DNA of 64,000 nucleotides from Candidatus Obscuribacterales bacterium (lineage in GTDB: Bacteria; Cyanobacteriota; Vampirovibrionia; Obscuribacterales; Obscuribacteraceae), in assembly GCA_965228855.1 (NCBI GenBank), contig CBDDIJ010000002.1, positions 512,001 through 576,000 of the forward strand, read 5' to 3'. A program made the position numbers and the translations under genes. The notes under the pieces are model-generated. The model made no database searches, was not told the DNA's origin, and was given only the letters and a program-made list of their open reading frames with translations. Below are positions 2,345 through 61,085 of this stretch, in pieces; positions within the stretch are counted from its first letter, which is position 1; each line of letters starts with the position of its first letter.

Positions 2345-2396
2345 TGTCTACGAGACGTTGCCGCTTTTCGCGAAATTCGTCATCGTCTCGTAGACA
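2345..2396. repeat. 52-bp dyad element, copy 1
   Basis: tgtcta-cgagacgt-tgccg-cttttcgcgaaatt-cgtca-tcgtctcg-tagaca; CTACTATA at 2248, TATAGTAG at 2485 and 2511. Confidence 0.9.
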
Positions 2397-2534
2397 AGCG
2401 GGCAAATTTGCCTTGAGTCAGACCAGGTGGATGCTCGAAAGCACCACGGTTACTCATCAGCCGGAAAACACGGATACGCCCGAATATAGTAGTTAATTCT
2501 TACGCTCAAATATAGTAGTAAATTCTTCAAAAAT

Positions 2535-2574
2535 CAGAGAGCCTGGAGCTTGGGCAAGCATCCAGGACTCTCTG
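2535..2574 (-). terminator. Intrinsic terminator after the DUF218 gene
   Basis: Hairpin cagagag-cctgga...tccagg-a-ctctctg with an A-run at 2529-2533 (U-tract on the minus strand). Confidence 0.6.
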
Positions 2575-2625
2575 CAAAGCTATGGGTTATCGCGTCGCAA
2601 GTTTCTTTCTAAGCCTGGAACTTGT

Positions 2626-3192
2626 TCAGGCAGCTCGCTCTTTGTAAGCGGGAATCCGCTTGAGGAGCTTTTCCATGCACGCCGACAAATCTCCTGGATT
2701 GATATCCTCGAAGAATTCGCGTGCACGTATCATCGCTGCCGGAGCACCAGACTGTCGGTTTTCACGCGACCATTCCGGAGCTTCATGGGCCACGACTTTC
2801 CACTTAGGTCCAAGTACTTGTTCGAAGATGTACACCGCGCGTTCCATATGGAACGGCGAAGTGACCACGAACAGCGTACCCGGCTCCATGTGCTGGAGGT
2901 GGCGAGAGACGGTGAAGATGGCATTGCCGAAGGTGTCGAACGACTGATCCTCCAGCAAGACATCCTCACTCACTCCCTCAGCTTTGATGATTTCCGCCAT
3001 CACAGCGGCTTCGGTTTTTCCGTGCCCCGAAGTGTCACTCGGAGCGCGAGAACCTGACGCGATAAGCCTCATCGGTTGGCTTTTGACCAGGGCGGCCGCG
3101 GTTTTTGCCCGCAAAGCCGTCACCTCAGTCGCCGTACCGTCAGCTTTTAAACCACTGCCAAGCACGACGGCGACTGAGTTCTCGAACGACAT
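2626..3192 (-). CDS. YdcF/DUF218 (ElyC/SanA-like) family protein
   Basis: VVLGSG, IASG, EAAVMA, LEDQSFDTFGNA and VVTSPFHMERA motifs typical of DUF218. Confidence 0.88.
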   Translation of the reverse strand: MSFENSVAVVLGSGLKADGTATEVTALRAKTAAALVKSQPMRLIASGSRAPSDTSGHGKTEAAVMAEIIKAEGVSEDVLLEDQSFDTFGNAIFTVSRHLQHMEPGTLFVVTSPFHMERAVYIFEQVLGPKWKVVAHEAPEWSRENRQSGAPAAMIRAREFFEDINPGDLSACMEKLLKRIPAYKERAA

Positions 3193-3210
3193 GTCAGTGC
3201 TCGTCGATTC

Positions 3211-4131
3211 TCAGTCGGGGTCGGTGCTGCCGGTCGTCACAGGTCCAGTGCCGGTTTCCGGCTGAGCGTCGGAGACGCTGCCGCAACCGCACGAACTCGG
3301 AGCCGGAGCACCGCCCTTGTCGGCAGGGGAGGAAGGAGACGGAAGACCAAGACGAATCGCCCGGCGGCGCCGGCGAATCAAGCGGTTGAGAGCGCTCTCT
3401 TCGACGTCGAGCCAGTCCTTGCAGCGCATGGTCTCGAATCCGGTATTCTCGGGCAGCTTGTCGCTTGCCGAGGCCAGGCTGGTCTCCAGGGGCAAGTAAA
3501 CAAAGTTGGTCTTCGACAGCGCAGCACCGTCGGACCGGATGCTGTTGCCGACGAAAGCCGAGTAGTGGGGGCTGGCGTCCATGTCTTCGATGAACTGACC
3601 CACGAGGCCGGCCTTGTTCTCCTGCAGCGTGATGATGATGTCGTCGAAAACCGCCGACAGACCACCCTGCCGAATCTTGTACTTCTGCGCCTCACGGTTG
3701 CCGACGGTCACAGCCACAATCATGAAGTTGTGGCGCGCGCGCGTCAGCACCGGCAGCGCGTAGTCGAACAGCTCCGGAGGGTTGAAGAACGGGGCACGCC
3801 CGATGCGCTCGCAGATGTCGGCGACGAGCTTCTTGCGTCGAACCCCATTTTCACGGCAGAGCGCAGTGTAGGACTCGGCAATCGCCTGACCGAACTTTCC
3901 GCGCTCGAAGCCGCGATGGGGCATGGACCCGTAGTAAACCTGATTGAGCTTGGCCTCAGCCGCTTTGCGATTGAAACCGCAAAGGCTCATCAGCTCGGCA
4001 AACTCCTGAATCGCTCCGTCGAAATACTTCTGACAGACCATCACGGTACCGTCGATGTCGACGAAGAGAACAGCGAGTTTGCCATCTGGAGCGCACATGT
4101 TGCGATCCGGAGTATGACAGTTAGTCACCAT
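3211..4131 (-). CDS. HAD-superfamily hydrolase
   Basis: Motif I FVDIDGT, motif II VTVG, motif IV-like FVGNSIRSD; low-complexity C-terminal tail; AGAGG RBS. Confidence 0.8.
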   Translation of the reverse strand: MVTNCHTPDRNMCAPDGKLAVLFVDIDGTVMVCQKYFDGAIQEFAELMSLCGFNRKAAEAKLNQVYYGSMPHRGFERGKFGQAIAESYTALCRENGVRRKKLVADICERIGRAPFFNPPELFDYALPVLTRARHNFMIVAVTVGNREAQKYKIRQGGLSAVFDDIIITLQENKAGLVGQFIEDMDASPHYSAFVGNSIRSDGAALSKTNFVYLPLETSLASASDKLPENTGFETMRCKDWLDVEESALNRLIRRRRRAIRLGLPSPSSPADKGGAPAPSSCGCGSVSDAQPETGTGPVTTGSTDPD

Positions 4132-4647
4132 AGGTCACCTCTTCCGTTATCCGATGCGCCACACCAGCAAAACCGGCTTCGCAGCCCGTTTCACAATGGA
4201 GCGATGTATCGGTGATTCAGTTCGGACAATCAAACCGGAAAGATCACGGACGAACCAATACAAGCCACACGTTGTGCACCTGCCTTAGTTCTGGAATCCG
4301 AAAATACTTGTATTTACTGGCTTGATGTCTGAATCAAAAAAATAAGATTGTGTTTCAAACTTAAGGGCTCTCGTTCTACCACGTAAATCCAGTAGTCAAG
4401 AGCACCATATCTCAATGGCGGCTTTCCACAAAGGCAAAAATAAGCTGAGTACAGCGATTCGAAATATCCGTTGTTTCTCTCAGGGCTCGCAAACAGTCAA
4501 TCTTTATACCTGCGCGAGCTAGATTCTCATGACAAGCCGAGCTCCAAGCACAGCCTCGCTTTTAAGACTCTGAAACCTTGCGCTAACCAAGCAAAAACGA
4601 GCCCAAGTCAGGCTCGTTTTCAAGTGCAGTATGTCCCTTGTCCTGAC

Positions 4648-12983: not shown

Positions 12984-13940
12984 CTACTGACAAACAGCCA
13001 ACATTTTGTTCAAAGACTCTTTGAAGAAACGTTCGTCATCCTCTGAAATTCCCAGGCAAACCTCCTGATTTACCTGACGCGCAAGCTGAGGCAGAACCTG
13101 GATCAAGCGCTCTCCATCCGCAGTTAGCCAAACTAGATGGGAACGCCGATCGCGCTCATCTCGCTCTTTGCGGATCAAAGATCTCTCTTCCATTCTCTCG
13201 AGCACACCGGCAAGGGAACCGCCAATTTGCTCGAGGTAATGCCCGATCTCGGAAACCGGGACGCCATCTTCCTGCCAGAGCCTGCACAGTACGACCCAGT
13301 GACTTGGAGTGACGTTATGCACCTCGATAAGATCAGCGAAGCGTCGCGTCGTGAGCAGCTGCAAGACCTTTAAACGGTAGCCGGGACCTCGGGGTGGAAG
13401 AATGAAGTGAAATTTTTGGGGAACCTCAACGCTTTCATGTGGAAGACAAACCGAGTAGGACGGCTCAAAATTGTAAATCATGCGATCCAAAATTTTTGAG
13501 AAACGCTCCAATTCATCCTCGGAAAGATCTTGCCAGGCATGGTACCAATGGCGGTGCACCAACGCCGGCAGCGAAGCACTGAGGGCGCGTCCCTCGTCGC
13601 TGAGAAACACTCTCCAGATGCGCTTGTCGTTCTTATCCCGCTTGCGCTTCAAAAGCTTGCGCTTCTCCATTCGCGTCAGCAGATCAGAAAGCGTTCCACC
13701 AATGTGCTGCAGCTGGCTTGCAATGTACATGACCGGCAAGCCGTCCTTTTGCCAGAGACAGGAAAGAACAACCCAATGACTGAGCGTGATGTCGAATTCG
13801 CCAAGCGCGTCGTTAAGCCGTTTCGCCATAATCGTCACGACGCGTTTCACGAGATAACCGACTGATTGCCTGGCAAACAGTTCGGAAAATTCTTTTTTGA
13901 TCTCGTCTTTGTCGCGCGTTTTTTCGAGCATGTTGTTCAA
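12984..13940 (-). CDS. Tandem (double-domain) MarR-family transcriptional regulator
   Basis: Two homologous winged-helix repeats: SHWVVLSCLWQKDG...RMEKRKLLKRKRDKNDKR and SHWVVLCRLWQEDG...RMEERSLIRKERDERDRR. Confidence 0.9.
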   Translation of the reverse strand: MNNMLEKTRDKDEIKKEFSELFARQSVGYLVKRVVTIMAKRLNDALGEFDITLSHWVVLSCLWQKDGLPVMYIASQLQHIGGTLSDLLTRMEKRKLLKRKRDKNDKRIWRVFLSDEGRALSASLPALVHRHWYHAWQDLSEDELERFSKILDRMIYNFEPSYSVCLPHESVEVPQKFHFILPPRGPGYRLKVLQLLTTRRFADLIEVHNVTPSHWVVLCRLWQEDGVPVSEIGHYLEQIGGSLAGVLERMEERSLIRKERDERDRRSHLVWLTADGERLIQVLPQLARQVNQEVCLGISEDDERFFKESLNKMLAVCQ

Positions 13941-14016
13941 TCACACCCCGATCACAATCATACATCAGTCCGGCACCAAAATGCCCACCGGTACTAGCAG
14001 ACGATTGCCAAGGTTA

Positions 14017-14053
14017 ATTATGGTTGGCACGAATAGTTCGTATCACCTATAAT
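14017..14053 (+). promoter_or_regulatory. Sigma70-like promoter overlapped by an imperfect palindrome (candidate MarR operator)
   Basis: ttggca (14024) - 18 bp - tataat (14048); dyad attatggt...acgaa-tag-ttcgt...acctataat. Confidence 0.55.
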
Positions 14054-14085
14054 AACAACAAAGGCATACCTGCGGGTCGATTACT

Positions 14086-17000
14086 ATGTGGATCGTACAG
14101 CTGGCGCTTAAACGACCATACACTTTCGTAGTCGTTTCGCTATTCATATGCATCCTCGGATTCGTCAGCATCACAAAAATGCCGACGGACATTTTTCCAA
14201 CGATCAACATGCCGGTAGTTTCAGTTATCTGGAGTTACAACGGGCTTCCGGCTGAACAGATGGAAAACCGCATAACGACTATATGCGAGCGAGCCATTAC
14301 GACAGTCACGAGCGACATCGACCACATCGAATCCTCATCGTTGAACGGCATCTCCGTCATAAAGGTTTATCTGCATCAAAGCGCCGATGTCGGAAGAGCG
14401 GTTGGAACTATTTCCGCCCTGTGCCAGACACTTCTTCGCATTTATCCGCCAGGAACGACGCCACCATTGATTACTTCGTTCAGCGCATCCGACGTCCCCG
14501 TACTTCAGCTGGGCGTCGGAAGCAGAGTGCTGTCGGAGCAAGAACTATTCGATTACGGTTTGAACTTCATTAGAACTGGTCTTTCCGGCGTCCAGGGCGC
14601 GTCTCTTCCGTTGCCATACGGAGGCAAAAGCAGGCAGGTTATGGTCGATCTCGACCCGCACGCGCTGCAATCAAAAGGTCTGTCTGCAACCGACGTCTCT
14701 CTTGCCCTCGCCGGGCAAAACGTCATTCTTCCAAGCGGTCAGGCAAAAATCGGCGCCACTCAATTTCCGGTCCAACTCAACAGCACTCCTGAAACAGTGG
14801 AAGGGTTCAACCACCTTCCGTTGAAACAGATTAATGGAACCACTGTCTATCTCAAAGATGTCGCACACGTCCGCGACGGCTTTGCGGTTCAAACCAATAT
14901 CGTCCACCAGGACGGCAGAAGATCGACGCTGCTGAACGTTTTGAAAAGCGGCAGTGCCTCTACGATCTCGGTGGTTGAACGGGTTCGCAAAGCACTTCCT
15001 CAGGTACTATCCACGGTGCCTAAGTCTTTGAACGTTCAGCTGATCGCCGACCAATCCGTTTTCGTTAAAGCCGCCGTCGACGGTGTTATTCGCGAAGCGG
15101 CAATTGCAGCTTTTCTGACGGCAATGTTGATTCTCGTACTCCTGGGGAGCTGGCGTAGCACCTTCGTGGTCGCAATTTCGATCCCCCTATCAATTCTCGC
15201 ATCGATCATTTGTCTCTCGCTCTGCCATCAGACCTTGAACATCATGACTCTCGGCGGACTGGCTCTGGCCGTGGGTATGCTTGTTGATGACGCTACGGTC
15301 GAAGTGGAAAATATCCACCGCAACATGGCCATGGGCAAGCCTATAACGCAGGCGATCCTCGATGGTGCCGAGCAGATCGCAGCGCCTTCGTTTGTCTCGA
15401 CGCTCGCGATTTGCATCGTGTTCGTCCCCGTTCTAATGCTAACCGAGCCGGCAAAATCGCTGTTCGTGCCGCTCGGCATGGCAGTCGTATTCGCGATGAT
15501 GTTTTCCTACTTCCTCTCACGCACGCTCGTTCCAGTGATGTGTCAGTACCTTCTGAAAGGTCATGAGGAGGAGGATACTGAAACTCACAAAGGCAACATC
15601 TTCACCGCAGTCCATCTGTTTGTAAACTCGATTTTCGATGCCGTTCGAGACAAATACAAAGTCATTCTGGATTTTTTTCTCCTCCGGAAAACACTCACTG
15701 TCATCGCCTTTTTGACCTTCTTCAGTTTGTCGTCGTTTCTAATTCCGGTAATCGGCATGGACTTCTTCCCCAGCGTCGATGCCGGTCAGCTGCGAATGCA
15801 CCTGACGGCGCCTACAGGAACAAGACTGGAGGAAACCGAGAGAATTTTCTTGCAAGTCGAAGACGAAATCAGGAAGATCATCAGCCACGAGGATCTGGCT
15901 ACAATCCTGGATAACATCGGCATTCCCACAAGCGGGATAAACCTGGCTTACGGCGACAATATTACGACCAGTGAGTTCGATGGTGAAATTCTGATTTCGC
16001 TTACTGAGGAACATAAAACTTCCACGTTCGTTTACGCCGACAAAATACGAGCGATGCTAAAGAAAAAATTTCCCGAAGTGAATTGCTTCTTCCAGCCCGC
16101 TGACATCGTGAGCCAGATTTTAAACGCCGGTCTGCCGGCTCCAATCGATATTCAAGTTGCAGGACGCAATAAGAAGGCGAACTACAAGATTGCCCAGCAG
16201 ATTCGCAAAGAAGTCGCTGCAGTGCGCGGATCCGCAGATGTCACTCTTCATCAAATCACCAATGCTCCACAGTTGAACCTGAACGTCGATCGCACCAAAG
16301 CCAATCAACTCGGTTTCTCTCAACGAGATATCGCATCCTCTCTGCTAATCAGCCTGGCCTCCAGTTTTCAAACCGCACCAGGCTTCTGGGTAAATCCGGA
16401 AAACGGAGTCAACTATCCTGTCGCCGTTCAAACGCCTGAGCATCGGATTGGCAGTGTCGACGCGATCATGCAGACTCCAGTCACCAGCCCGACAAGCAAC
16501 TCGCCGCAGCTTCTGATGAACCTGGCGACGGCGCAACAGGGAACAACCGCGACAGTCGTCAATCATTACAAGATTCAACCTGTGTACAACGTGTTCGCAA
16601 ACGTCAACAATCGCGATCTCGGTGGCGTGATGGCTGACGTCGAAAAGATTGTCAAACGCATCGAGCCGGACTTGCCGCGCGGCAGCTCCATTTCCGTTCG
16701 TGGACAAGCTCAGAGCATGACGGCGGCTTTCTACGGATTGCTCAGCGGACTGGTATTCGCGCTATTACTGGTTTACCTGCTTCTCGTAATCAATTTCCAA
16801 TCCTGGACCGATCCATTGATCATTCTCATGGCACTTCCGGGCGCCGCCACAGGCATCTTATGGGCTCTCTACTCAACGCAAACCACCTTCAGCGTCCCCG
16901 CACTCATGGGGGCTATAGTATCGATTGGTGTAGCCTCTGCTAACAGCATATTGCTAGTCACATTTGCCAACGACCAGTTGGCGGAGGGGTATGATGCCAC

Positions 17001-17280
17001 GGAAGCAGCCTCGCAGGCTGGATTCACGCGATTTCGTCCAGTCGTCATGACCGCCAGCGCAATGATAATCGGCATGCTTCCCATGGCACTGGGGTTGGGC
17101 GAAGGCGGCTCGCAAAATGCACCGCTGGGACGCGCCGTGATCGGTGGACTTAGTGTCGCGACAGTGGCGACTCTGCTATTTGTCCCCTGTATTTTTGCAA
17201 TCGTTCGAAGAAACGCAAAGCAACCGATCGTGAGCCACGAGCACGATCTGGCGCCGTCCGGAGGAATCAAGTATGACTGA
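14086..17280 (+). CDS. RND efflux permease (AcrB/CusA superfamily)
   Basis: 1064 aa; GMLVDDATVEVEN, RFRPVVMT and APLGRAVIGG RND motifs. Confidence 0.96.
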   Translation: MWIVQLALKRPYTFVVVSLFICILGFVSITKMPTDIFPTINMPVVSVIWSYNGLPAEQMENRITTICERAITTVTSDIDHIESSSLNGISVIKVYLHQSADVGRAVGTISALCQTLLRIYPPGTTPPLITSFSASDVPVLQLGVGSRVLSEQELFDYGLNFIRTGLSGVQGASLPLPYGGKSRQVMVDLDPHALQSKGLSATDVSLALAGQNVILPSGQAKIGATQFPVQLNSTPETVEGFNHLPLKQINGTTVYLKDVAHVRDGFAVQTNIVHQDGRRSTLLNVLKSGSASTISVVERVRKALPQVLSTVPKSLNVQLIADQSVFVKAAVDGVIREAAIAAFLTAMLILVLLGSWRSTFVVAISIPLSILASIICLSLCHQTLNIMTLGGLALAVGMLVDDATVEVENIHRNMAMGKPITQAILDGAEQIAAPSFVSTLAICIVFVPVLMLTEPAKSLFVPLGMAVVFAMMFSYFLSRTLVPVMCQYLLKGHEEEDTETHKGNIFTAVHLFVNSIFDAVRDKYKVILDFFLLRKTLTVIAFLTFFSLSSFLIPVIGMDFFPSVDAGQLRMHLTAPTGTRLEETERIFLQVEDEIRKIISHEDLATILDNIGIPTSGINLAYGDNITTSEFDGEILISLTEEHKTSTFVYADKIRAMLKKKFPEVNCFFQPADIVSQILNAGLPAPIDIQVAGRNKKANYKIAQQIRKEVAAVRGSADVTLHQITNAPQLNLNVDRTKANQLGFSQRDIASSLLISLASSFQTAPGFWVNPENGVNYPVAVQTPEHRIGSVDAIMQTPVTSPTSNSPQLLMNLATAQQGTTATVVNHYKIQPVYNVFANVNNRDLGGVMADVEKIVKRIEPDLPRGSSISVRGQAQSMTAAFYGLLSGLVFALLLVYLLLVINFQSWTDPLIILMALPGAATGILWALYSTQTTFSVPALMGAIVSIGVASANSILLVTFANDQLAEGYDATEAASQAGFTRFRPVVMTASAMIIGMLPMALGLGEGGSQNAPLGRAVIGGLSVATVATLLFVPCIFAIVRRNAKQPIVSHEHDLAPSGGIKYD

Positions 17281-18721
17281 AGAGCTCAAGAGCCCCGACC
17301 TGGGAGCGCGCGCCTCAAACGTGCAGCCGATTCAAATAGCTCGCTCGGTTCATGCCGTTCATCCCGAAGGCGGTCATCCGGACGCTAAGTTCAAAACCGG
17401 TTCCGGCTCGAAGATTCCGCTTGCCGTCACTGCCTTTCTCGTAGGAGGCGCCGTTGTCTTCGGGGGAATATTCGCAGCCGGTCTCATACCTCGCTTGCAA
17501 CAAAAAGAACAAGCGGCCGCTCTCGCCAAAGAAGAAGCGAAACAGTTGCCATCATATGCGGTGACAACGATAAAACCAGGCAAGAAAATTACGGAGCTCA
17601 CTCTGCCTGCAAACATACAGGCAATCCAAGAATTCAGTATCTACGCCCGCTGCGATGGTTATCTGAAGCAACGATTGGTCGACATCGGCGACCGGGTTAA
17701 AAAAGATCAGCTATTGATGGTGATAGACGCACCGGAACTCGAACAGCAATTGAAGGGCGCGCAGGCTGCGTTGCAACAAGCCAAAGCCCAATTGAAGTCT
17801 GCTGAAGCAGATCTCGCGCAGTCGGTTTCTCTCATAGAAAACAATAAGGCTTCTGTGAAACGGCTACAGGCGGTGTTGACATTTGCAAAGCGAGAACTGC
17901 ATCGTTACGAGGAATTGGCGAACCAGGGAGCCGTGAGTGTCGAGCAACGAGATGAAAAATTAAGGGATCTCGACGCCGACCGCGCATCTGTCGAGGCAGC
18001 CAATGCGGCTGTCGAAGCGGCTCAAGCTCAGGCTTCAGCGAATCGCGAAAAGATCTCAGCAGCAAAAGCGTCAGTAGAGGCGGCTCACGCACAAGTGCGC
18101 GAGATCCAGTCGCTAGCCTCATTCCAGCGCCTGCTAGCACCCTGCGATGGCGTTATCACTGCGAGAAACGTGGATGCCGGAGCTCTGGTCTCCAAAGGCA
18201 GCAGCACGAACAATCAGGCCCTGATGAAGATGGCTCGAACTGACGTGCTGCGTGTGTTCGTATTTATTCCGCAATCGGATTACCAGGGTGTATACGTTGG
18301 GATGCCTGCAAAAATCAAAATCGCCGAGTTGCGAGACAAAACTTTTGAGGGCCGCATCGCACACATCTCAGGAGGCATGGACCCGACCTCCCGAACACTT
18401 CAAACAGAAATTCAGATTCCAAACCAAACCGGCTCACTGCTGCCGGGAATGTACGCGCAAGTCAGCTTATCCGCGGAACGCGAGAATCCACCGTCAATTA
18501 TCCCCGACCAGGCAATCGTTGTTAAACCGGATGGGCAGTTTGTCATCACCGTTTCACGCGACGGAACAGCTCACTATCAGCGGATCAAACTGGGACGAGA
18601 TTTCGGACACGAAAGCGAAGTGCTATCCGGGCTCAAACCTGGAATGGTTATCACGACCGAACCTTCAAATGAAATAATGGAAGGTCAGAAAATTAGCACG
18701 CGCTCCGCAACCGCGGACTAG
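17273..18721 (+). CDS. RND periplasmic adaptor (membrane fusion protein)
   Basis: TM anchor, lipoyl halves (VDIGDRVKKDQLL; APCDGVITARNVDAG), coiled coil, LLPGMY; overlaps the RND stop codon. Confidence 0.93.
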   Translation: MTEELKSPDLGARASNVQPIQIARSVHAVHPEGGHPDAKFKTGSGSKIPLAVTAFLVGGAVVFGGIFAAGLIPRLQQKEQAAALAKEEAKQLPSYAVTTIKPGKKITELTLPANIQAIQEFSIYARCDGYLKQRLVDIGDRVKKDQLLMVIDAPELEQQLKGAQAALQQAKAQLKSAEADLAQSVSLIENNKASVKRLQAVLTFAKRELHRYEELANQGAVSVEQRDEKLRDLDADRASVEAANAAVEAAQAQASANREKISAAKASVEAAHAQVREIQSLASFQRLLAPCDGVITARNVDAGALVSKGSSTNNQALMKMARTDVLRVFVFIPQSDYQGVYVGMPAKIKIAELRDKTFEGRIAHISGGMDPTSRTLQTEIQIPNQTGSLLPGMYAQVSLSAERENPPSIIPDQAIVVKPDGQFVITVSRDGTAHYQRIKLGRDFGHESEVLSGLKPGMVITTEPSNEIMEGQKISTRSATAD

Positions 18722-19015
18722 AAGTAGATTCCATCAGTCTGCACTTTTTTCTCCACCAAATCTACACCAGTTACTCACGCGACGATCACAAGCCTGAAAC
18801 AATATATTGGATATGGTCATCGCTCGCCAAGCCAGCATTGCCCAGCTTCCGCACCTTGCGAACGCGGCGAGCGGTTTACTGCTGGTACTGGATATGGTGC
18901 AACAATTTTGCGCAATTATCGTCGCTAAATCACAAATACGCAATTAGGATGATGCGATCCAAAGTTGCCTTGACCTAATCTTCCTCTGTAACCCGATTTT
19001 TTAGAAACCCGATTC

Positions 19016-20065
19016 ATGAAAATAATAAGTACGGCCACCAGCTTTCCCAACCACTATTACGCACAATCTGAGATTACGACGGCTTTAGGAGATTATTGGC
19101 AGGATGCGCTTAAAAAGCGCGAAGTAATGGAGCGTTTCCATCGCAACGCTGGTGTCGAAGGAAGACACCTGGCAATGCCCGTTTCCGAGTTTCCAAAGGT
19201 GAAGGACTGGGGCGAATCAAACGACATTTTCATTCGGCAGGCAGTTACTCTTGGCGAAAGTGTCATCAACAAGGCTCTTGCGGAAAGGGCAGTACAAGCC
19301 AATCAGATCAGTGCTTTGACATTTGTATCGATAACCGGAATATCAAATCCATCGATTGATGCGAGACTGATGAATCACATCGATTTTCCCTCCAATTTGA
19401 AGCGAACTCCGATATTCGGTCTGGGCTGCGTGGGCGGAGCCGCCGGCATCGCAAGGACCGCCGATTATCTGAAAGCGTATCCGGACCAGATGGCTATTCT
19501 GTTGTCGGTAGAACTTTGCTCATTGACCTGGCAACGCGCCGATCTCACTCCCGCACACGTCATTTCATCTGCCCTCTTCGGCGACGGAGCCGCGGCGGTT
19601 CTAATGTGCGGCGCTGAACTCGATCATGACGGACCAACGGTTATCGATACGCAATCGAACTTCTATCGCGGCACCGAGGATTTGATGGGATGGAACATCA
19701 CTGCCGATGGATTTCGCGTCCTGTTATCGCCCGATGTACCGAAAGTAGTGCTGGAGCACTTGCGAAGCGATGTCGACAAGCTGCTCGGCAAGCACGGATT
19801 AACACGTGCCGATATCGGTCAATGGATTATGCACACCGGAGGACCGAAGGTTCTTGAGGCCACTCAGAAAGCACTCGACCTTCCGCGTGAAGCACTAGAA
19901 GTTTCGTGGCAATGTCTGAGCGACATGGGCAATCTCTCCTCAGCATCTGTGCTTGCGGTGCTCGACCGAATCATACGCACAGCTCGTCCCCCGAAAGGCA
20001 CCTGGAGCGTTATGTCTGCGATGGGCCCGGGCTTTTGCTCAGAGCTGGTTCTGATTAAGTGGTAG
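19016..20065 (+). CDS. Type III polyketide synthase (chalcone/stilbene synthase superfamily)
   Basis: Cys-His-Asn triad: GLGCVGG, MHTGG, MGNLSSAS; also LFGDGAAA and MGPGF. Confidence 0.94.
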   Translation: MKIISTATSFPNHYYAQSEITTALGDYWQDALKKREVMERFHRNAGVEGRHLAMPVSEFPKVKDWGESNDIFIRQAVTLGESVINKALAERAVQANQISALTFVSITGISNPSIDARLMNHIDFPSNLKRTPIFGLGCVGGAAGIARTADYLKAYPDQMAILLSVELCSLTWQRADLTPAHVISSALFGDGAAAVLMCGAELDHDGPTVIDTQSNFYRGTEDLMGWNITADGFRVLLSPDVPKVVLEHLRSDVDKLLGKHGLTRADIGQWIMHTGGPKVLEATQKALDLPREALEVSWQCLSDMGNLSSASVLAVLDRIIRTARPPKGTWSVMSAMGPGFCSELVLIKW

Positions 20066-20085
20066 TTCTTTTCGGTAACTCAAAA

Positions 20086-21285
20086 ATGAAAACAGAATCA
20101 ACCGATGCGGTGATAATTGGCGGCGGTCCAGCCGGTCTAGCTGCGGCGATCGCACTAGCCAACCGCGGAGCTAAATGCACCGTGGTCGACTTCAAAAAAC
20201 CTCCAATCGAAAAACCTTGCGGGGAGGGCTTAATGCCCGACTCCCTGAAAGAACTCGCAAAGCTGGGAATTGAGCTTCCAAAGACCAGCGGATTCGTATT
20301 CGACGGCATCAGATTTAAACGAGGCAAATATCAGGTGGAGAGCAGCTTTCCGCTAGGCGAAGGTTTAGGTGTAAGACGAACGGTGTTACACCAAGCTCTA
20401 GTTTCCAAAGCGGAAGAATCGAAAAATATTTCTCTCGTTTGGAATACACGTGTCAGCAGAATCGACCCTGATTCAGTTTGTGTCGGGGACCGCGAGATCT
20501 CATATAAGTGGCTCATTGGAGCGGACGGAATTAATTCTGGTGTGCGTAAGTGGGCGAGCCTCGATGTCGGTGAATCGGCGACGTTCCGCTACGGCTTCCG
20601 CAGCCATTATCTGATCGAACCGTGGACATCTCGGATGGAACTTCACTGGGCAGACATCGGGCAGATGTACGTAACTCCAGTAAGTGAAGACGAAGTCTGT
20701 GTCGTCTTCCTGAGCCGAGACAAGAGTATGCGTTTCGAACAGGCGCTCCAGCGTTTTCCGGAGTTAAACGAACGACTGAATGGTGCATGCCTGTCGTCTA
20801 AACTGCAAGGCGCGGTCACTGCAATCAGAACGCTTCGTGCAGTGTCCGGAGAAAATACTGCACTTATTGGCGATGCCTCCGGATCGGTCGATGCTATCAC
20901 CGGAGAGGGACTCGCATCCTCGTTCAGGCAGGCTCTCGCTCTTGCAGATGCACTGGAGCAAAACGATCTTGCAATTTATGCCAAGGCCCATAAAGCACTT
21001 GCACAGTTACCGACGCGAATGGCTCAGCTGATGCTTCTTCTCGACCGTTTGCCAGGTCTTCAAGATCGAATAATTCGAGCCCTTTCACTTACGCCCGACA
21101 GCTTCGGAAACCTGCTGAGCGCCCATGTCGGACATCAATCCCTTCCTCTAACGATCTGCCGAGAAATTCCCAAAATCGCATGGAATCTTTTCGCGACAGA
21201 GCAGACCGGCTCTGAGTGCGACTCAATACCGTTTCCAACTCCCGCACAAACTACGTCCAAGCATGAGGTGACCAAGATTGCGTAG
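20086..21285 (+). CDS. FAD-dependent oxidoreductase/monooxygenase (geranylgeranyl reductase / SrsC-like)
   Basis: IIGGGPAG, KPCGEGL, IGADG and IGDASGSVDAITGEG flavoprotein motifs; follows the PKS directly. Confidence 0.88.
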   Translation: MKTESTDAVIIGGGPAGLAAAIALANRGAKCTVVDFKKPPIEKPCGEGLMPDSLKELAKLGIELPKTSGFVFDGIRFKRGKYQVESSFPLGEGLGVRRTVLHQALVSKAEESKNISLVWNTRVSRIDPDSVCVGDREISYKWLIGADGINSGVRKWASLDVGESATFRYGFRSHYLIEPWTSRMELHWADIGQMYVTPVSEDEVCVVFLSRDKSMRFEQALQRFPELNERLNGACLSSKLQGAVTAIRTLRAVSGENTALIGDASGSVDAITGEGLASSFRQALALADALEQNDLAIYAKAHKALAQLPTRMAQLMLLLDRLPGLQDRIIRALSLTPDSFGNLLSAHVGHQSLPLTICREIPKIAWNLFATEQTGSECDSIPFPTPAQTTSKHEVTKIA

Positions 21286-21892
21286 CAGAGCGACGAAGGC
21301 TTATTTAAAATCGATAGCTGTTTCGACCGTCCTTCTCGGACTTGCAAACTGCGCTCCCGCACTCGCAGAAAACAAAGTTTGGAAGATTGATGAGCAAACA
21401 TCATCGGTTGAATTTTCGGTTAAACATCTGCTCGTTTCGAATGTAACCGGACGTTTTCCGGGTTTCTCCGGCGAAATCGGTTATGACGGTAAGAATCTGG
21501 CACAAGCTACCGTGAAGGCCTCGGTCTCCACCGGTAGTATCAATACGAAAAACCAAATGCGCGATAAGCATTTGAAAGCAGAGAACATCCTCGCTGCCGC
21601 ACTCTATCCTGCAATAACCTTCAATTCGAATCGGGTCGTTCCACTCGCGGATGGCAAATTTGACATCATGGGAAAGCTCACTTTGCACGGTGTCGAGAAA
21701 GAAGTTACACTGCACGCCAGTCCATTGAAAGTTCACTCGGATAAAAACAAACAACGCCTCAGCACCACTGCTTCCACAGACATCGCCCGCAAAGAGTTCA
21801 ATATATTTGTCGATAAGGCGATTGATAAAGGCGGCGCGGTTGTCGGTGAAACGGTAAAAGTTAAACTGAAAATCGAACTTGTCGAGGAATAA
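21278..21892 (+). CDS. YceI-family lipid/polyisoprenoid-binding protein
   Basis: Signal peptide; WKIDEQTSSVEFSVKH, RDKHLK, GKLTLHGVEKEV. Confidence 0.9.
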   Translation: MRSRATKAYLKSIAVSTVLLGLANCAPALAENKVWKIDEQTSSVEFSVKHLLVSNVTGRFPGFSGEIGYDGKNLAQATVKASVSTGSINTKNQMRDKHLKAENILAAALYPAITFNSNRVVPLADGKFDIMGKLTLHGVEKEVTLHASPLKVHSDKNKQRLSTTASTDIARKEFNIFVDKAIDKGGAVVGETVKVKLKIELVEE

Positions 21893-21904
21893 TTCGACGG
21901 ACCA

Positions 21905-27598: not shown

Positions 27599-27683
27599 CG
27601 CGAACCCGCTACTATATCACCCCAAAGACAGTTCAAGCACCGGGCGGGCTTTCGGACATCATGATCAGACTTGAGCTTTGCTT

Positions 27684-27735
27684 TGTCTACGAGCCATTGC
27701 CGCTTTTCGTGAAATCCGGCAATGTGTCATAGACA
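27684..27735. repeat. 52-bp dyad element, copy 2
   Basis: tgtcta-cgagccat-tgccg-cttttcgtgaaatc-cggca-atgtgtca-tagaca; CTACTATA at 27609, TATAGTAG at 27826. Confidence 0.9.
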
Positions 27736-27857
27736 AACAGGCAAAAAGATAACGGCTTCGGATAGGTGGGCGCCCGAAAGCCCCATGGGTTAACTACTCT
27801 GCCGGATTTGCTAAATACTGCCTTTTATAGTAGCAAAACCGAAGAGGCGAAGACCGC

Positions 27858-30358: not shown

Positions 30359-30831
30359 ATCCGTTACTCCAGATTTGAAGGCTGGATTAGACGCAGCCTT
30401 TGTCCGGCATATTTGCGGGACGAGCGAAAAAGGGTAAGAACACCGCTCGAGTGACTCGAACGATCCATGACGCGCTTGCAACTGAGACTCACCCACCGTA
30501 AAGACCCGCCGTCACTGTTTAAGACGCGCGAAATCTGATTTTGGAGGTGAAAAGGTTATTGTGCCTTGGTTTTCTCAGAGAGTTGCAGAAGCTGATATGT
30601 AATTCGAACCTACGCGCCGAGGCATCCTCATGACAATAGGCCGATAGTCGTAACTGACAACTATTTACCATATGAACTTTTATGTTTCCTTAAGAATCCT
30701 TGAAACCTAGCGCTAGATTAGCGTAGCGGCAGAGAAGACAGAGCCACTACTATCACATACAGGATCCGCAAAATCGTACAGAGCCCTAGCAGACCGGCTT
30801 TCCGGGTTCCAGCTATCCGTAGCCCCGAATT

Positions 30832-30883
30832 TGTCTACGAACGGATGACGGAATGCGAGAAAATCGGCATCCCCTGAGAGACA
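30832..30883. repeat. 52-bp dyad element, copy 3
   Basis: tgtcta-cgaacgga-tgacg-gaatgcgagaaaat-cggca-tcccctga-gagaca; CTACTATC at 30747, TATAGTAG at 30986. Confidence 0.85.
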
Positions 30884-32708: not shown

Positions 32709-32829
32709 CGAACACGCTCTACTATACAGCTTCGTATTCGACACCAAGAGCACCAAGCAACGAAGAACCAAGCAGAACTGCAATCCCCGTAACCAAGGGG
32801 GAAGGATAGGCAATTCTGTAAGTTGGGTT

Positions 32830-32881
32830 TGGCTACGCTGCGTTGACGGAAATAGCGAAATTCGTCGCTCTCTCGTAGCCA
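32830..32881. repeat. 52-bp dyad element, copy 4
   Basis: tggcta-cgctgcgt-tgacg-gaaatagcgaaatt-cgtcg-ctctctcg-tagcca; CTACTATA at 32719, TATAGTAG at 32962 and 33067. Confidence 0.88.
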
Positions 32882-33074
32882 GACGAAGAGAGGTCAAGCT
32901 ATCTGGAGGCTGAGGACTCTGACTATACGGGCATTTTACGTGCTCACTGGAGACTGTCTTCTATAGTAGATAAGCCTCGGTAGCCAGACGAAGAGAGGTT
33001 AAGTTATCTGGAGGCCTAGGACCATGACTATACGGACATTTTACGCGTTCAACTGAGACTGTCTTCTATAGTAG
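32875..33074 (+). repeat. Imperfect tandem duplication, period 105 bp
   Basis: gtagccagacgaagagagg...gactatacgg...gagactgtcttctatagtag at 32875-32969 and again at 32980-33074. Confidence 0.9.
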
Positions 33075-40078: not shown

Positions 40079-40205
40079 CCTTCTAAATTTTGCTACTAAC
40101 ATATACAGTACAGGCCTACCTACTAAAACATACAGTAATTTTCAAATCCCTAAAGACAGTCAAGACATGGAAATACGGAAATGGCTGCCTAGAGACACCC
40201 CGGCT

Positions 40206-40257
40206 TGTCGCTCTCAGAATGCCGAATTTTGGGAATTCCGGCAACGCCTCATAGACA
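40206..40257. repeat. 52-bp dyad element, copy 5
   Basis: tgtcgc-tctcagaa-tgccg-aattttgggaattc-cggca-acgcctca-tagaca; CTACTAA variants at 40093 and 40120. Confidence 0.8.
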
Positions 40258-40285: not shown

Positions 40286-40472
40286 GGGATTGACGGGGCT
40301 CGAGCTAGACCCGATCTGTCAATGGGACAGCGACGGAATTCGCTAGATCCGTCGCTCTGGGATTGACGGGACTCGAGCTAGACCCGGTCTGTCATTTAGA
40401 CAGCGACGGAATTCGCTAAATCCGTCGCTCTGGGATTGACGGGACTTGAGCTAGACGGGGCTTGAGCTAGAC
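40286..40472 (+). repeat. 73-bp tandem repeat (about 2.4 copies) containing 52-bp dyad copies 6 (40317-40368) and 7 (40390-40441)
   Basis: Unit starts at 40286, 40359 and 40432; core tgtcaa-tgggacag-cgacg-gaattcgctagatc-cgtcg-ctctggga-ttgacg. Confidence 0.9.
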
Positions 40473-48730: not shown

Positions 48731-50590
48731 ATGAAAGAATCATCGACCTCTTCGCTCCTCAATCTCCGCCACGCTCGCCTCGCCGCCTGGGTGACGAGCA
48801 TGGACGCGCTTCTCCAGCCCGACCGCATCATCGTGTGCGACGGTTCGCAGGACGAGTTCGACCGCCTCACGGCGGAGATGGTGGCGAGTGGTACCCTGAC
48901 TCGACTCAACGCCGAGCTGCGCCCGAACAGCTTCCTGGCTCGTTCGGACGTGTCCGATGTGGCGCGCGTCGAAGAGCGCACCTTCATCTGCTCGAAGGAC
49001 AAGGACGACGCCGGTCCGACCAACAACTGGATGGACCCTGCCGAGGCGAAAGCCACCCTGTCCGCCCTGTTCGACGGCGCCATGCGCGGACGCACGATGT
49101 ACGTGATTCCGTTCAGCATGGGCCCGCTCGGCTCCGATATCTCGCATATCGGCGTCGAGATCACCGACTCGCCTTACGTGGTCGCCAGCATGCGCATGAT
49201 GACGCGCATGGGCTCCGCGGTTCTCGACGAGCTCGGCGACGACGGCGAGTTCATCCCCTGCCTGCATTCGGTCGGCGCGCCGCTGTCCGAAGGTCAGGCC
49301 GACGTGAGCTGGCCGTGCAACAAGACCAAGTACATCTGCCACTTCCCGGAGAGCCGCGAAATCTGGTCTTTCGGCTCGGGCTACGGCGGCAACGCCCTGC
49401 TCGGCAAGAAGTGCTTCGCGCTGCGCATCGCCTCCAGCATGGCTCGCGAAGAAGGCTGGCTCGCCGAGCACATGCTCATCCTCGGGCTCGAATCGCCCGA
49501 AGGCGAGAAGAAGTACATCGCCTGCGCGTTCCCGAGCGCCTGCGGCAAGACGAACCTCGCCATGCTCGTGCCGCCCGCCGGCTTCGACGGCTGGAAGGTG
49601 ACGACGGTGGGCGATGACATCGCCTGGATCAAACCGGACGCGACGGGAACGCTGCGCGCCATCAACCCGGAAGCCGGCTACTTCGGCGTCGCTCCCGGTA
49701 CGTCGCCGAAGACCAACCCGAATGCGATCGCCTCTCTCGGTCGCGACTGCATCTTCACGAACGTCGCGCTTACCCCGGACGGCGACGTCTGGTGGGAGGG
49801 TCTGACCGACGAAGCGCCCGCTTCCCTGATCGACTGGGAAGGCCGCGAATGGACGCCGGGTTGCGGTCGCAAGGCTGCCCACCCGAACGCCCGCTTCACC
49901 GTCGCCGCCACCAACTGCCCGTCGCTCGACAGCGAATGGGACAACCCGGAAGGCGTGCCGATTTCGGCATTCGTCTTCGGCGGACGGCGCGAGAGCACGG
50001 TACCGCTGGTGGTGCAGTCGCACAACTGGCTCTACGGTGTCTACATGGGCGCGACCCTCGGCTCCGAAACCACGGCGGCTGCTGCCGGCGCGGTCGGACA
50101 GGTGCGCCGCGACCCGATGGCGATGCTGCCCTTCTGCGGCTACAACATCGGCGACTACTTCGCGCACTGGCTCGAAATCGGTCGCAAGATCGAGGGCGTC
50201 AACGACGAGAACTGGCTCTGGGGCAGCGACGACGCCAAGCTCCCGCCGGTGTTCTGCGTCAACTGGTTCCGCAAGGACGAGAACGGCAAGTTCATCTGGC
50301 CGGGCTTCGGCGACAACATGCGCGTGCTGAAGTGGATCTTCGAGCGCACCAATGGCGGTGGCGGCGCGGAGACCACGGTGCTGGGCTGGAAGCCTCGCCA
50401 CGAGGACCTGGACTGGACCGGTCTCGACTTCTCGCCGGCGGCATACGCTGCGGCAAGCAAGATCGACCCCGCCGAATGGACCGCCGAGATCGCTCTCCAG
50501 AAGGAACTCTTCGCGAAGGTCGGCGGACGCCTGCCGGGCTGCCTCAACGCCCTGATCGGCGGAATCGAAACCGAGTTCAAGAAGCTCTAA
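48731..50590 (+). CDS. pckG: Phosphoenolpyruvate carboxykinase (GTP)
   Basis: [67 protein letters not shown]. Confidence 0.97.
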
Positions 50591-50680: not shown

Positions 50681-50785
50681 AAAAACCCTCTACTATATGA
50701 TCCCGTTTCTCTCAAAGCTCAAAGAGTCGACAGTGCGTACGTTTCGAGCATTCGAACAGTTTCTGCCTTAGCCCGAAGAGCCATT

Positions 50786-50837
50786 TGGCTATCCCACGAT
50801 GCCGGATTTCGCCAAAAGCGTCATTCCAGGATAGACA
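50786..50837. repeat. 52-bp dyad element, copy 8
   Basis: tggcta-tcccacga-tgccg-gatttcgccaaaag-cgtca-ttccagga-tagaca; CTACTATA at 50690. Confidence 0.92.
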
Positions 50838-50953
50838 CGAAGGGCGTCAACTCGCCTACTATATACTTTCGTTTCCCTTAAAGACCCAAAGCGCTGACTA
50901 TTCGCCGCTTTTGAGCCTTCGGGCAATTTCGAGACTAACCAGAAACAGTCATC

Positions 50954-51005
50954 TGTCTATCCCACGATGCCGGTTTTCGCCAAAAGCGTCATTCCAGGAT
51001 AGACA
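50954..51005. repeat. 52-bp dyad element, copy 9
   Basis: tgtcta-tcccacga-tgccg-gttttcgccaaaag-cgtca-ttccagga-tagaca; CTACTATA at 50856, CATAGTAG at 51084. Confidence 0.92.
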
Positions 51006-51098
51006 AAAGACCCCTAGCGTCTTAGCCTTATCCCCGAACCTCAATGCGCAAGGTACTTCGCAGCAATGCGATGCGCTACATGGCATAGTAGTAATTTT

Positions 51099-53450: not shown

Positions 53451-53557
53451 CAAATCATGTCTACTATATGCCACCGTCTGTCACCAAGTCCCCGAGCGTC
53501 CATGCGCAGTGAATCTCGGGCATCGCGCAGTTTAGGCTTTCTACGAAAAACGCCTTT

Positions 53558-53609
53558 TGGCTATCCCACGATGCCGGATTTCGCCAAAAGCGTCATTCCA
53601 GGATAGACA
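53558..53609. repeat. 52-bp dyad element, copy 10 (identical to copy 8)
   Basis: tggcta-tcccacga-tgccg-gatttcgccaaaag-cgtca-ttccagga-tagaca; CTACTATA at 53461, TATAGTAG at 53688. Confidence 0.92.
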
Positions 53610-53696
53610 CGAGACCGTCCGCGCCTTGCCTCAATCCCCAAACCTCAATACGCGAGAGACTTTATAGCGATCATAGCTTTTATACGCTATAGTAGC

Positions 53697-54141: not shown

Positions 54142-54153
54142 CGAATCACTCCG

Positions 54154-57570: not shown

Positions 57571-57613
57571 GAGAATCTCCTTGTTTTTGGAATGGTTTTT
57601 AAGGATACCGAGT

Positions 57614-59251: not shown

Positions 59252-59259
59252 AGGGAAGC

Positions 59260-60513
59260 ATGAATCGCGACTACCAAGTCATCATCATTGGAGCAGGGCT
59301 AGCCGGACTGGCTTGCGGACTGCATCTCCAGAAGAAAAACATTCCCTTCATCATCCTCGAGAGTTCGGACGCACCTGGTGGGCGAATTCGCACAGACAAG
59401 GTTGATGGTTTTTTGCTCGACAGGGGATTCCAAATTTTATTGACGGAATATCCTGAGGCACGCAAACTCTTTGACTACGAAAAGCTTGATTTGAAGCCGT
59501 TTTCTCCCGGTGCTCTTGTGCGCCTCGGCAAGAAATTTCATAGAGTTACCGACCCTTTTCGAGAGCCTGATAAAGCACTTGAAACATTGTTCGCACCAAT
59601 CGGAACTCTCACCGATAAAATGAACATCGCGAAGATTCGTCTGACGCTAACTGGACAACCGATCGAGAAGATTCTGACCGCAACTGAATATACAACGATG
59701 GAGTTGCTCAAGCTACAAGGTTTTTCCCAATCGATAATCGATAAGTTTTTCAGACCATTTTTTGGAGGAATTTTTCTTGAGTCGAAGCTCGAGACTTCAA
59801 GCAGAAAGTTTGAGTTTTTCTTCCGAACATTTTCGGGCGGCGACAATGTTATTCCAGCCAAGGGAATGCAAGAACTGCCAAATCAGTTGGCAGAAAAGCT
59901 CGGGCTATCTAACATCAAGTTAAATACCAGAGTCACTAATGTGACCAATCAGACCGTAACGACTGAAGACGGCGAAATATATGAGGCACCGCATGTGGTG
60001 ATAGCCACAGATAGGCGAGCCATGGGAAAAATTCTCTATGGCACGGATTTGTCCGAAGACGACCGGTCTGTGACCTGCCTCTACTTTGCTTGCGACACCG
60101 CGCCGATAAAAGAACCGATTCTCGTTTTAAACGGAGAGAAAACTGGTCCGATCAACAATCTCTGCGTGCCGAGCAACGTCTCTCCCGACTACGCCCCGCC
60201 CGGACAGGCACTGGTTTCGGTGACTGTTCTTGGAACCCGCAAAGATCACAATGCGTTGGAAAAGGCGGTTAGAAGTCAACTTGAAGAATGGTTCGGACGC
60301 GATGTTAAAGGTTGGCGCCGACTGCGGACCTACAGAATCGACAACGCTCTGCCGAAACAAAATCCACCCACCAGCTTCGTGGAAAACAAAAATGAAGTTC
60401 GTCCTGGAATCTACGTGTGCGGTGACCACATGAGCACAGGTTCGCTAAACGGCGCTCTTGAATCGGGCCGAGAAGTCGCAGAGATGATCGAGAAAACTCT
60501 GCTGCAATCGTAA
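59260..60513 (+). CDS. FAD-dependent oxidoreductase (flavin amine oxidase family)
   Basis: IIGAGLAGL, GGRIRTD..DGFLLDRGFQ, CGDH..TGSLNGALESG. Confidence 0.92.
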   Translation: MNRDYQVIIIGAGLAGLACGLHLQKKNIPFIILESSDAPGGRIRTDKVDGFLLDRGFQILLTEYPEARKLFDYEKLDLKPFSPGALVRLGKKFHRVTDPFREPDKALETLFAPIGTLTDKMNIAKIRLTLTGQPIEKILTATEYTTMELLKLQGFSQSIIDKFFRPFFGGIFLESKLETSSRKFEFFFRTFSGGDNVIPAKGMQELPNQLAEKLGLSNIKLNTRVTNVTNQTVTTEDGEIYEAPHVVIATDRRAMGKILYGTDLSEDDRSVTCLYFACDTAPIKEPILVLNGEKTGPINNLCVPSNVSPDYAPPGQALVSVTVLGTRKDHNALEKAVRSQLEEWFGRDVKGWRRLRTYRIDNALPKQNPPTSFVENKNEVRPGIYVCGDHMSTGSLNGALESGREVAEMIEKTLLQS

Positions 60514-60558
60514 GCTAGCAACGGCGAAACTGCGGACGAGAGGTAGACCGTCATTAGC

Positions 60559-60582
60559 ACTGGACTGGACTGGACTGGACTG
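60559..60582 (+). repeat. (ACTGG)n microsatellite
   Basis: actgg x4 plus actg. Confidence 0.85.
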
Positions 60583-60605
60583 CCCTCCCCTCCCTTCGCT
60601 TTAAT

Positions 60606-60970
60606 ACTGCAAATTGGTTTGCAGCTTTTGGCTCAAAACCAGCAATCTAAATTGCAGCCACCGAATTATGTCCCCAGATTGGCGTCCTCTGCACTCTAAA
60701 TCGACCGACTGCAAATTGGTTTGCAGCTTTTGGCTCAAAACCAGCAATCTAAATTGCAGCCACCGAATTATGTCCCCAGATTGGCGTCCTCTGTACTCTA
60801 AATCGAACCGACTGCAAATTGGTTTGCAGCTTTTGGCTCAAAACCAGCAATCTAAATTGCAGCCACCGAATTATGTCCCCAGATTGGCGTCCTCTGCACT
60901 CTAAATCGACCGACTGCAAATTGGTTTGCAGCTTTTGGCTCAAAATCAGCAATCTAAATTGCAGCCACCG
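60606..60970 (+). repeat. 102-bp tandem repeat, about 3.6 near-identical copies, each with a 53-bp imperfect palindrome
   Basis: Units start at 60606, 60708, 60811 and 60913 (actgcaaattggtttgcagcttttggctcaaaaccagcaatctaaattgcagcc...). Confidence 0.95.
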
Positions 60971-60987
60971 CACTATGTCGTAGTGAT

Positions 60988-61038
60988 TTCTGATCTCATA
61001 TCTCATATCTCCTGTCTCATATCTCGTGTCTCATGTCT
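60988..61038 (+). repeat. Degenerate 7-bp tandem repeat (TCTCRTR-like) running into dyad copy 11
   Basis: tctcata tctcata tctcctg tctcata tctcgtg tctcatg tct. Confidence 0.8.
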
Positions 61039-61085
61039 ACGCCAGAGCGACGGATCTTCGGAAAAGCGTCAACGAGTCGTAGACA
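61034..61085. repeat. 52-bp dyad element, copy 11
   Basis: tgtcta-cgccagag-cgacg-gatcttcggaaaag-cgtca-acgagtcg-tagaca; TATAGTAG at 61166. Confidence 0.9.

Follow-up and report, generated by a model that had tools for sequence, protein, structure and literature searches.

A dispersed 52-bp twin-palindrome site of the origin domain in an Obscuribacterales genome, and a PLD-HTH protein family as its candidate partner

The 52-bp site in the window and in its genome

The window analysed here, 64,000 nucleotides from Candidatus Obscuribacterales (C2:512001-576000 of G000, an 8.2-Mb genome that is 95% complete), contains 11 copies of a 52-bp dyad-symmetric site, hereafter the core, dispersed among genes. 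A sequence-only reading of the window had described the copies as gapless, all intergenic and divided into boxes of 6-8-5-14-5-8-6 bp; all 11 are indeed present at the coordinates it gave, lie between Pfam-supported or long open reading frames (ORFs) and parse without gaps, seven of them matching the consensus exactly and 11 of 11 doing so within four mismatches. The division into seven boxes, by contrast, is better replaced by one of 19+14+19 bp. Because each half of the core forms a palindrome of its own (YGKC-N11-GMCR), showing one dinucleotide alphabet whichever end it is read from, the core consists of a pair of 19-bp dyads at a distance of 33 bp, separated by 14 bp of AT-rich spacer. This parse, the phased distal sites (arms) that flank many copies, the clustering around the replication origin and a candidate partner gene, which lies outside the window, were beyond the sight of that reading. 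The features of the window are as follows, none with a strand assigned.

2345..2396, no strand: TGTCTA-class core flanked by two distal arms, whose hexamers lie at 2248-2253 and 2487-2492
27684..27735, no strand: TGTCTA-class core, with arms at 27609-27614 and 27828-27833; the genes on either side, ABC-2 and FtsH-like, are convergent
30832..30883, no strand: core with a left arm at 30747-30752
32830..32881, no strand: core with a right arm at 32964-32969 and a weak left arm at 32719-32724
40206..40257, no strand: core with a left arm at 40120-40125
40286..40456, no strand: arm-less tandem array of the TGTCAA class, 73-bp, with cores at 40317-40368 and 40390-40441
50690..51091, no strand: composite arm-core-arm-core-arm element 3' of the terminator of a phosphoenolpyruvate carboxykinase (PEPCK) gene, with cores at 50786-50837 and 50954-51005 and arm hexamers at 50690, 50856 and 51086
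53461..53695, no strand: full arm-linker-core-linker-arm element between convergent genes, with its core at 53558-53609
60606..60979, no strand: four copies, one every 102 bp, of CTGCAAW-N4-WTTGCAG-N15-CTGCAAW-N4-WTTGCAG, a third family of twin dyads that the sequence-only reading missed
61034..61085, no strand: core with a right arm at 61168-61173

A position-weight matrix built from the 11 copies of the window and applied genome-wide at a score of at least 14 found 210 copies at 161 loci in G000, 197 of them intergenic; the scores leave an empty range from 14 to 25, and a control shuffled in 6-mer blocks gave no match at 12 or above. These gene calls, like those behind the convergent counts and domain statistics below, come from a crude caller written for the analysis. 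The invariant spacing claimed earlier holds at this scale (core length 52 in 176 copies and 53 in one on contig C2), and the central dinucleotide is variable over the 161 loci: GC in 55, CG in 39, CC/GG in 20, CA/TG in 18 and others in 29.

What the core is as a molecule was judged from its divergence and its pairing. Between G000 and its sister genome G007 (about 95% DNA identity), 23 of the 39 single-copy orthologous cores tried differ at 1.8% of box positions and 4.4% of N8 positions, as against 10-11% in the linkers and 12% at fourfold sites, while the octamer of the distal arm is unchanged (0/232). The claim that the N8 segments diverge freely thus fails, both by this comparison with neutral DNA (10-12%) and because positions 7, 8 and 12 carry 0.8-1.0 bit. 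The two half-sites had also been described as varying independently, which is nearly but not fully so, complementarity reaching 55.8% at the 16 variable columns against 51.4+/-1.1% in shuffles. We read this significant excess as the probable trace of occasional symmetric copying and not of selection for a hairpin. No perfect 19-bp hairpin arm exists among 134 loci, with a median of about six mismatches per 19-bp arm, and the window has no Rfam match at gathering score. Since purifying selection acts on the boxes and the arms pair hardly more than chance predicts, the core is best taken as a double-stranded protein site, as the sequence-only reading had favoured; the mismatched arms, the invariant length and the lack of an Rfam match all agree with that preference over an RNA hairpin.

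Distal arms and the origin domain

Outside the core, 236 of 420 core flanks carry an outward-pointing motif, TAC-N6-WATAGTAG, the distal arm. Its distances from the core fall into the classes 68-70, 78-82, 88-94 and 101-105 bp, with one arm at 84 bp and otherwise none between classes; they step helically (69/80/92/102 bp), and the linker between core and arm holds an AAA...TTT dyad. The word CTACTATA occurs 291 times in the genome, 234 of these near a core. Arms on the two sides of a core are independent of each other (p 0.84), and none is found beside the 44 half-sites of the TGTCAA or CGTCAA type. A strong hairpin stands just outside 113 of 205 arms, as against just inside 56, which is consistent with putative terminators beyond the arms, and an arm is present on 154 of 218 sides facing 3' ends versus 51 of 104 facing 5' ends. 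The arm was also considered as a promoter and rejected: it mostly faces 3' ends, and no -35 box was seen at the right distance. Among the origin-domain proteins screened against Pfam, 95 from G000 and 66 from G078 and thus part of about 900 domain genes, there was no dedicated arm binder. The arm is family-wide and older than the core, with all 10 matches in G078 and all six in G012 clustered around dnaA, and it occurs without a core in G001, G002 and G004.

The cores are concentrated in one part of the chromosome. As many as 174 of the 210 lie within C2:77-1121 kb, that is 1.04 Mb or 12.7% of the genome, which straddles the switch in GC skew and the sole dnaA at 793 kb. This origin domain has a third-position GC content (GC3) of 0.62-0.76 versus about 0.54 elsewhere, a coding density of about 0.81 versus 0.89 and only three of 74 tRNA genes. 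Within the genome, 88 of 197 intergenic cores lie between convergent 3' ends, compared with 438 of 3370 long spacers (p 1e-25). The domain is recognizable in G078, a single-contig genome of another genus, where 175 of 233 origin-region orthologues map to the G000 domain, compared with 4 of 206 taken from a total of four control blocks. The origin region is likewise raised in GC there. Gene adjacencies are kept between the genera at 99 of 221 positions in the domain versus 128 of 170 in three control blocks and 4 of 30 in a fourth; between G000 and G007 the domain is collinear over about 550 kb. This conserved compartment (G000 C2:~60-1130 kb, G078 C1:2.40-3.05 Mb) contains mostly accessory-type genes in scrambled order, and rpoB lies outside it, on contig C5.

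Searches for ParB_N gave no chromosomal match in G078, G012 or G092 and one weak match in G000, in an ORF of 727 aa, and no origin cluster of parS-like words was found; SMC is present. The sole ParB-like match of G000 is on contig C4, which, together with C2:1-77000, forms high-GC blocks (0.63-0.64 per 100 kb) that are likely mobile DNA or contamination. The origin domains of G000, G007, G078 and G012 also encode an HU paralogue with a Lys/Ala-rich tail (C2:631975-632412 in G000), whose G000 and G078 versions are 93% identical, as against about 51% on average.

Besides G000, the exact core was found in G007, with 129 matches, and as a single copy in an orthologous position of G006; it was not found in 38 other relatives. 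G078 has the same architecture in other letters, TATGC-N8-GCATA twice, 33-34 bp apart, with 16 such cores and 23 arms in a 621-kb origin region and none of either in a 400-kb control. Among the matches listed, the records that share the motif are Candidatus Obscuribacterales; pattern matches outside the order have matrix scores below 0 and look like chance or unrelated hairpins. One contig labelled Acidobacteria (L016-L018) ends in a stretch about 85-92% identical to window positions 50.5-53.8 kb, cores included, and is probably misbinned. Three Fibrella records (L019, L027, L074) show near-perfect long hairpins with TGTCTA-N8-WGACG boxes at the same spacing and a low matrix score, probably an unrelated repeat.

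A PLD-CxxC-HTH family beside repeats of its own

The candidate partner is a family of proteins of about 255 aa, each with a PLD-like domain, a CxxC pair and an XRE helix-turn-helix (HTH) domain; G000 encodes five, each inside the origin domain or at its border. In the PLD domain HxKxxxxD is invariant and GSxN near-invariant, and residues H107, K109, D114, N124, C156 and C159 do not vary among 24 sequences. The protein as a whole is covered by no model of Pfam, NCBIfam or PADLOC. Its predicted structure (predicted local distance difference test score 92) matches NucT, Zucchini, Nuc and TrmBL2, the solved HTH domains nearest to its own are those of C.BclI and HipB, and the PLD part bears a weak resemblance to Mokosh MkoC and DISARM DrmC. 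Full-length relatives end at a sharp score cliff, and those that are named are Melainabacteria or similar. A search of 300 further genomes from the phylum did not find the protein, and it had no match in phage or plasmid collections; the one viral match is PLD-only, and Atlas matches are all below 0.9. In these searches the family members appear to be undescribed DNA-cutting and DNA-binding proteins restricted to Obscuribacterales, and the open-licence literature in PubMed Central (PMC) and bioRxiv, supplements excluded, yielded no description of either the element or the protein family.

Gene and repeat are linked in that family members tend to stand beside twin dyads in letters of their own. 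At 20 family loci in 13 genomes, selected out of about 90 matches for their score and spread, a perfect twin dyad with a spacing of 32-33 bp lies within about 600 bp in seven, compared with seven of 300 random origin-domain windows (p 3e-6), and the letters differ from locus to locus (TATAGCG, TATTCCA, GATTGCA, TGTCG, ATGTG, CGTTTC or TATAC, for example). Of 80 metagenome loci, duplicates were set aside, as were four partial matches and two loci nearly identical to the G000 and G007 genes; this left 23 full-length loci to be compared with 43 PLD-only loci on a score out of 20. Dyads scoring at least 16 at 33-34 bp accompany eight of the full-length loci and one of the PLD-only loci (p 0.0006), and dyads scoring at least 18 accompany three and none (p 0.04), off-spacings giving 0-2. 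The spacing spectrum over 47 loci peaks at 33 bp (seven loci), with at most one locus elsewhere. A de novo scan of G000 likewise returned 48 twin dyads at 33 bp versus 0-7 at other spacings in the 30-36 bp range, and also brought up the third repeat family, of CTGCAA type, with 45 copies at 11 loci, four of the copies in the window and the spacer always 15.

Each of the three repeat classes pairs with a paralogue in G000 or in the sister genome. The paralogue at C2:103k (C2:103074-103847) has TGTCTA cores on both sides; its G007 sister, 54% identical, is flanked by TGTCAA arrays; and the C2:1043k paralogue has a CTGCAA array some 270 bp upstream of it, as has its G007 orthologue. Both family genes of G078 end about 105-130 bp from a core. 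Two supported clades couple related proteins to related sites, most deeper branches being weakly supported. That family members each stand beside repeats of their own sequence points to a new repeat-spreading system.

Arrays of the repeat have been gained and lost. In seven comparisons, the orthologous spacers of G002, G001 and G006 are without the cores present in G000, and two of them retain an arm. Arrays differ in both directions between G000 and G007, a six-copy array being present in G007 only, and family genes replace entire slots between terminators. Tandem arrays have one junction at -1 to +2 from the core edge in 36 of 62 cases, a figure inflated by shared orthologues and core selection. 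Whole-unit tandem duplications break -3 to +5 bp from the core edge in 11 of 11 cases (nine loci), and five of them also break just past the arm octamer, a pattern that fits cutting inside a putative looped arm-core complex.

The cores have served as targets for other elements. Two IS110-family insertion sequences have inserted only in the 52-mer, one of them in the outer box and the other in the inner box: element a has three copies (G000 C2:774.7k, 858.6k and 1120.8k) and element b four (C2:197.2k, 987.6k, C5:860.9k and 1461.4k). Their non-coding ends are similar and differ at words matching the respective insertion positions. The pair offers a natural instance of bridge-RNA retargeting within one repeat. 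The 52-mer is a used safe harbour for IS110 elements, much as the repetitive extragenic palindromes (REPs) hit by IS621 in E. coli are (PMC11208160).

Weighing the readings

That the family protein binds the repeats is probable. Whether it also cuts and mobilises them is an even call, and a host function of the repeats is suggested with rather less confidence. Taken together, the system may be a repeat population with a cognate enzyme in the manner of REPIN-RAYT, run by a PLD enzyme and with one repeat family domesticated in the origin domain, a proposal for which the scales stand level in our view. Its most specific form is put forward tentatively: a PLD-family nuclease with a fast-evolving HipB-like HTH would be the site-specific transposase or recombinase of 33-bp twin-palindrome units, docking them in helical phase beside post-terminator host sites and so shaping an origin domain of high GC and shuffled gene order, in a lineage seemingly lacking ParB.

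Mechanistically, one HTH dimer would occupy each short palindrome, the two palindromes being 33 bp apart. HipB-class dimers bind serial palindromes of the form 5-N6/8-5 (PMC4150777). The two dimers would stand three turns apart on one face of the helix, and therefore their PLD domains could pair over the spacer or outwards. In single-HKD nucleases the active site forms between two subunits, and BfiI makes a covalent DNA intermediate and can rejoin ends and add nucleosides (PMC2853115; PMC2475615); the paired PLD domains might thus form an active site that cuts or transesterifies at the outer edge of the unit. The family shares with BfiI, Nuc, NucT and Zucchini a single HKD motif and an active site expected at the dimer interface (PMC2853115; PMC2475615). 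Unlike that group, it has an XRE HTH behind a CxxC linker and resides in a genome rich in its sites and not depleted of them; the family genes inspected have no methyltransferase partner beside them. The unit, and sometimes the gene itself, would thereby be duplicated and relocated, with every paralogue retaining its own repeat letters and the 52-bp family belonging to the paralogue at C2:103074-103847. This family may have spread into terminator-side slots marked by the older host site TAC-N6-WATAGTAG, in helical phase, and would now be held by selection, probably within a nucleoprotein loop by which the origin domain is organised or insulated.

The resemblance to REPIN-RAYT (PMC5581495) lies in the many extragenic palindromes after gene ends and in an enzyme gene of low copy number with its own repeat class at its flanks. 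The differences are a PLD-HTH partner in place of Y1, a double-stranded site of fixed geometry, phased distal host sites and restriction to the origin domain. The 52-mer itself is not a REP: published families have stems of 8-9 bp and loops of 4-5 nt (PMC3733652), and the core does not present the short hairpin, kept by selection and bearing an unpaired GTAG or CGTC tag, that is expected of a REP. More generally, it is a member of none of REP-RAYT, serine att, attC, parS or Rfam.

Several observations weigh against the proposal of a repeat-mobilising PLD enzyme. Of the family loci, 13 of the 20 in genomes and 15 of the 23 from metagenomes show no scored twin dyad; G001-G005 have family genes but this motif is unexpanded in them, and 204 kb of G002 contained no 33-bp twin dyad and one weak match at 34 bp. 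G000 has 24 full cores of the TGTCAA class, yet the sister paralogue was not found there. In G016 the gene and its twin dyads lie about 1 Mb from dnaA, and therefore linkage to the origin is not universal. Core-edge junctions of older duplications can arise from core selection alone, and the strain comparisons revealed neither a target-site duplication nor a clean unit-length insertion. Strains differ by whole intergenic slots, which homologous replacement would produce equally well. Finally, we know of no PLD-family transposase.

The main rival takes the repeats for sites of chromosome architecture, at which the PLD-HTH protein or a host protein, together with an arm factor, would fold or anchor the origin domain or load SMC on it in place of ParB/parS; the repeats would have spread passively by recombination or gene conversion, and the nuclease would not be the mover. 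The crowding of cores around dnaA in G000, the confinement of G078 cores and arms to the origin region relative to the control, the absence of ParB_N from three genomes searched and its weakness in the fourth with SMC present, the Lys-tailed HU paralogue in four origin domains, the helical phasing, the purifying selection and the archaeal chromatin protein TrmBL2 among the fold matches all speak for it. It is nevertheless unlikely: core letters turn over fully between genera and between paralogues and most relatives have few cores or none, which would be odd for an essential centromere, and the HKD motif is retained and the G016 cores lie far from dnaA. The sites of parS/ParB, Noc/SlmA and RacA (ram) are position-restricted, origin-biased protein sites under selection. 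The cores share the origin-proximal distribution of parS in G000 and G078, though not in G016, and differ from all of these in their composite 240-bp architecture, their lineage-specific letters and the lack of ParB in the three relatives tested. The earlier verdict that they are not parS stands, as neither a ParB partner nor the 16-bp parS palindrome is in evidence.

It is improbable that the cores are operators of an autoregulated toxin-antitoxin-like or defence nuclease, made of a HipB-like HTH and a PLD toxin, whose dispersed copies act as sinks or as self-marks docking the nuclease. The HTH does match HipB and controller proteins, the PLD part is weakly like MkoC and DrmC, and cores lie upstream of several family genes; they lie downstream or on both sides at least as often, however, 88 of 197 are between convergent 3' ends, and the phased arms, the edge-specific duplications and some 200 selected copies would go unexplained. 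The operators of HipB and C proteins (PMC4150777) offer the same HTH class, serial palindromes of 16-19 bp and 5-bp boxes. Here, unlike there, the HTH is fused to a nuclease, the 33-bp spacing is fixed across letter variants, and hundreds of copies lie far from the gene, at 161 loci that are mostly at 3' ends and mostly off promoters.

Attachment sites of a serine or Xer-like site-specific recombinase with lambda-like arm sites are more improbable still. Core, phased arms and bend-like linker do resemble attP, and large serine att sites and lambda attP combine a dyad of about 50 bp with distal sites in helical phase. Two Xer-like paralogues are encoded in the origin domain (L177:9775-10713 and L178:13144-14055), one with 83% identical orthologues across the genus, and gene order there is more scrambled between genera. 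Yet these proteins have R-to-K and H-to-Q changes in their catalytic motifs and occur in core-less genomes, and the search for attL/attR pairing found none (p 0.30); indel breakpoints are off-centre, about 550 kb are collinear with G007, and synteny breaks coincide with elements only at p 0.057. The Xer-like paralogues were rejected as the partner, their distribution not tracking the cores (none in G078 at 1e-30), and are possibly non-catalytic DNA binders. The analogy that had been drawn to serine-recombinase att sites likewise fell away: Resolvase and Recombinase (PF00239, PF07508) have no match in the 95%-complete genome, no central dinucleotide is fixed, neighbouring copies show no attL/attR pairing and their facing sides are uncorrelated, and the domain is collinear with that of the sister genome. 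In contrast to such systems, no serine recombinase, fixed crossover dinucleotide, attL/attR products or inversions between close genomes were found. The exclusion of integron attC was borne out, the boxes differing from RYYYAAC/GTTRRRY, the length being constant and complementarity weak.

Least credible of all is a REP-like RNA or single-stranded hairpin serving termination or mRNA stability, for although cores are enriched at convergent 3' ends, arm complementarity is slightly in excess and the mean fold is -19.2 versus -17.9 kcal/mol for swapped halves, there are many mismatches, no perfect arm, an invariant length, separate terminator hairpins outside the arms, no Rfam match and no Y1 (HUH) transposase (PF01797, 0 matches in G000).

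Were the PLD-HTH protein to move its repeats, PLD chemistry would join DDE, HUH, tyrosine, serine and Cas1 enzymes for the cutting and joining of DNA. The enzyme would be compact, and its dozens of naturally occurring HTH-site pairs could serve to deduce a recognition code; the arrangement would also be a second, independent counterpart of REPIN-RAYT, in which the question of why repeat populations persist could be put to the test under a different chemistry. Should the protein do no more than bind the repeats, a so far undescribed organisation of the origin domain, with a conserved gene set, raised third-position GC and phased sites, would still be present in a lineage seemingly without ParB.

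Some further features of the sequence stand apart from the repeats. Window positions 48731-50590 encode a GTP-dependent PEPCK, of which two more paralogues (71% and 67%) are found elsewhere in the genome. Positions 12984-27598 form one cluster with a double-MarR regulator, an RND pump, a type III polyketide synthase with an FAD oxidoreductase, YceI and an ABC exporter. Elsewhere in G000, 21 tRNA genes are packed on one strand within 3.5 kb at C3:724518-727973, and five more lie at C3:1529.8-1530.7k.

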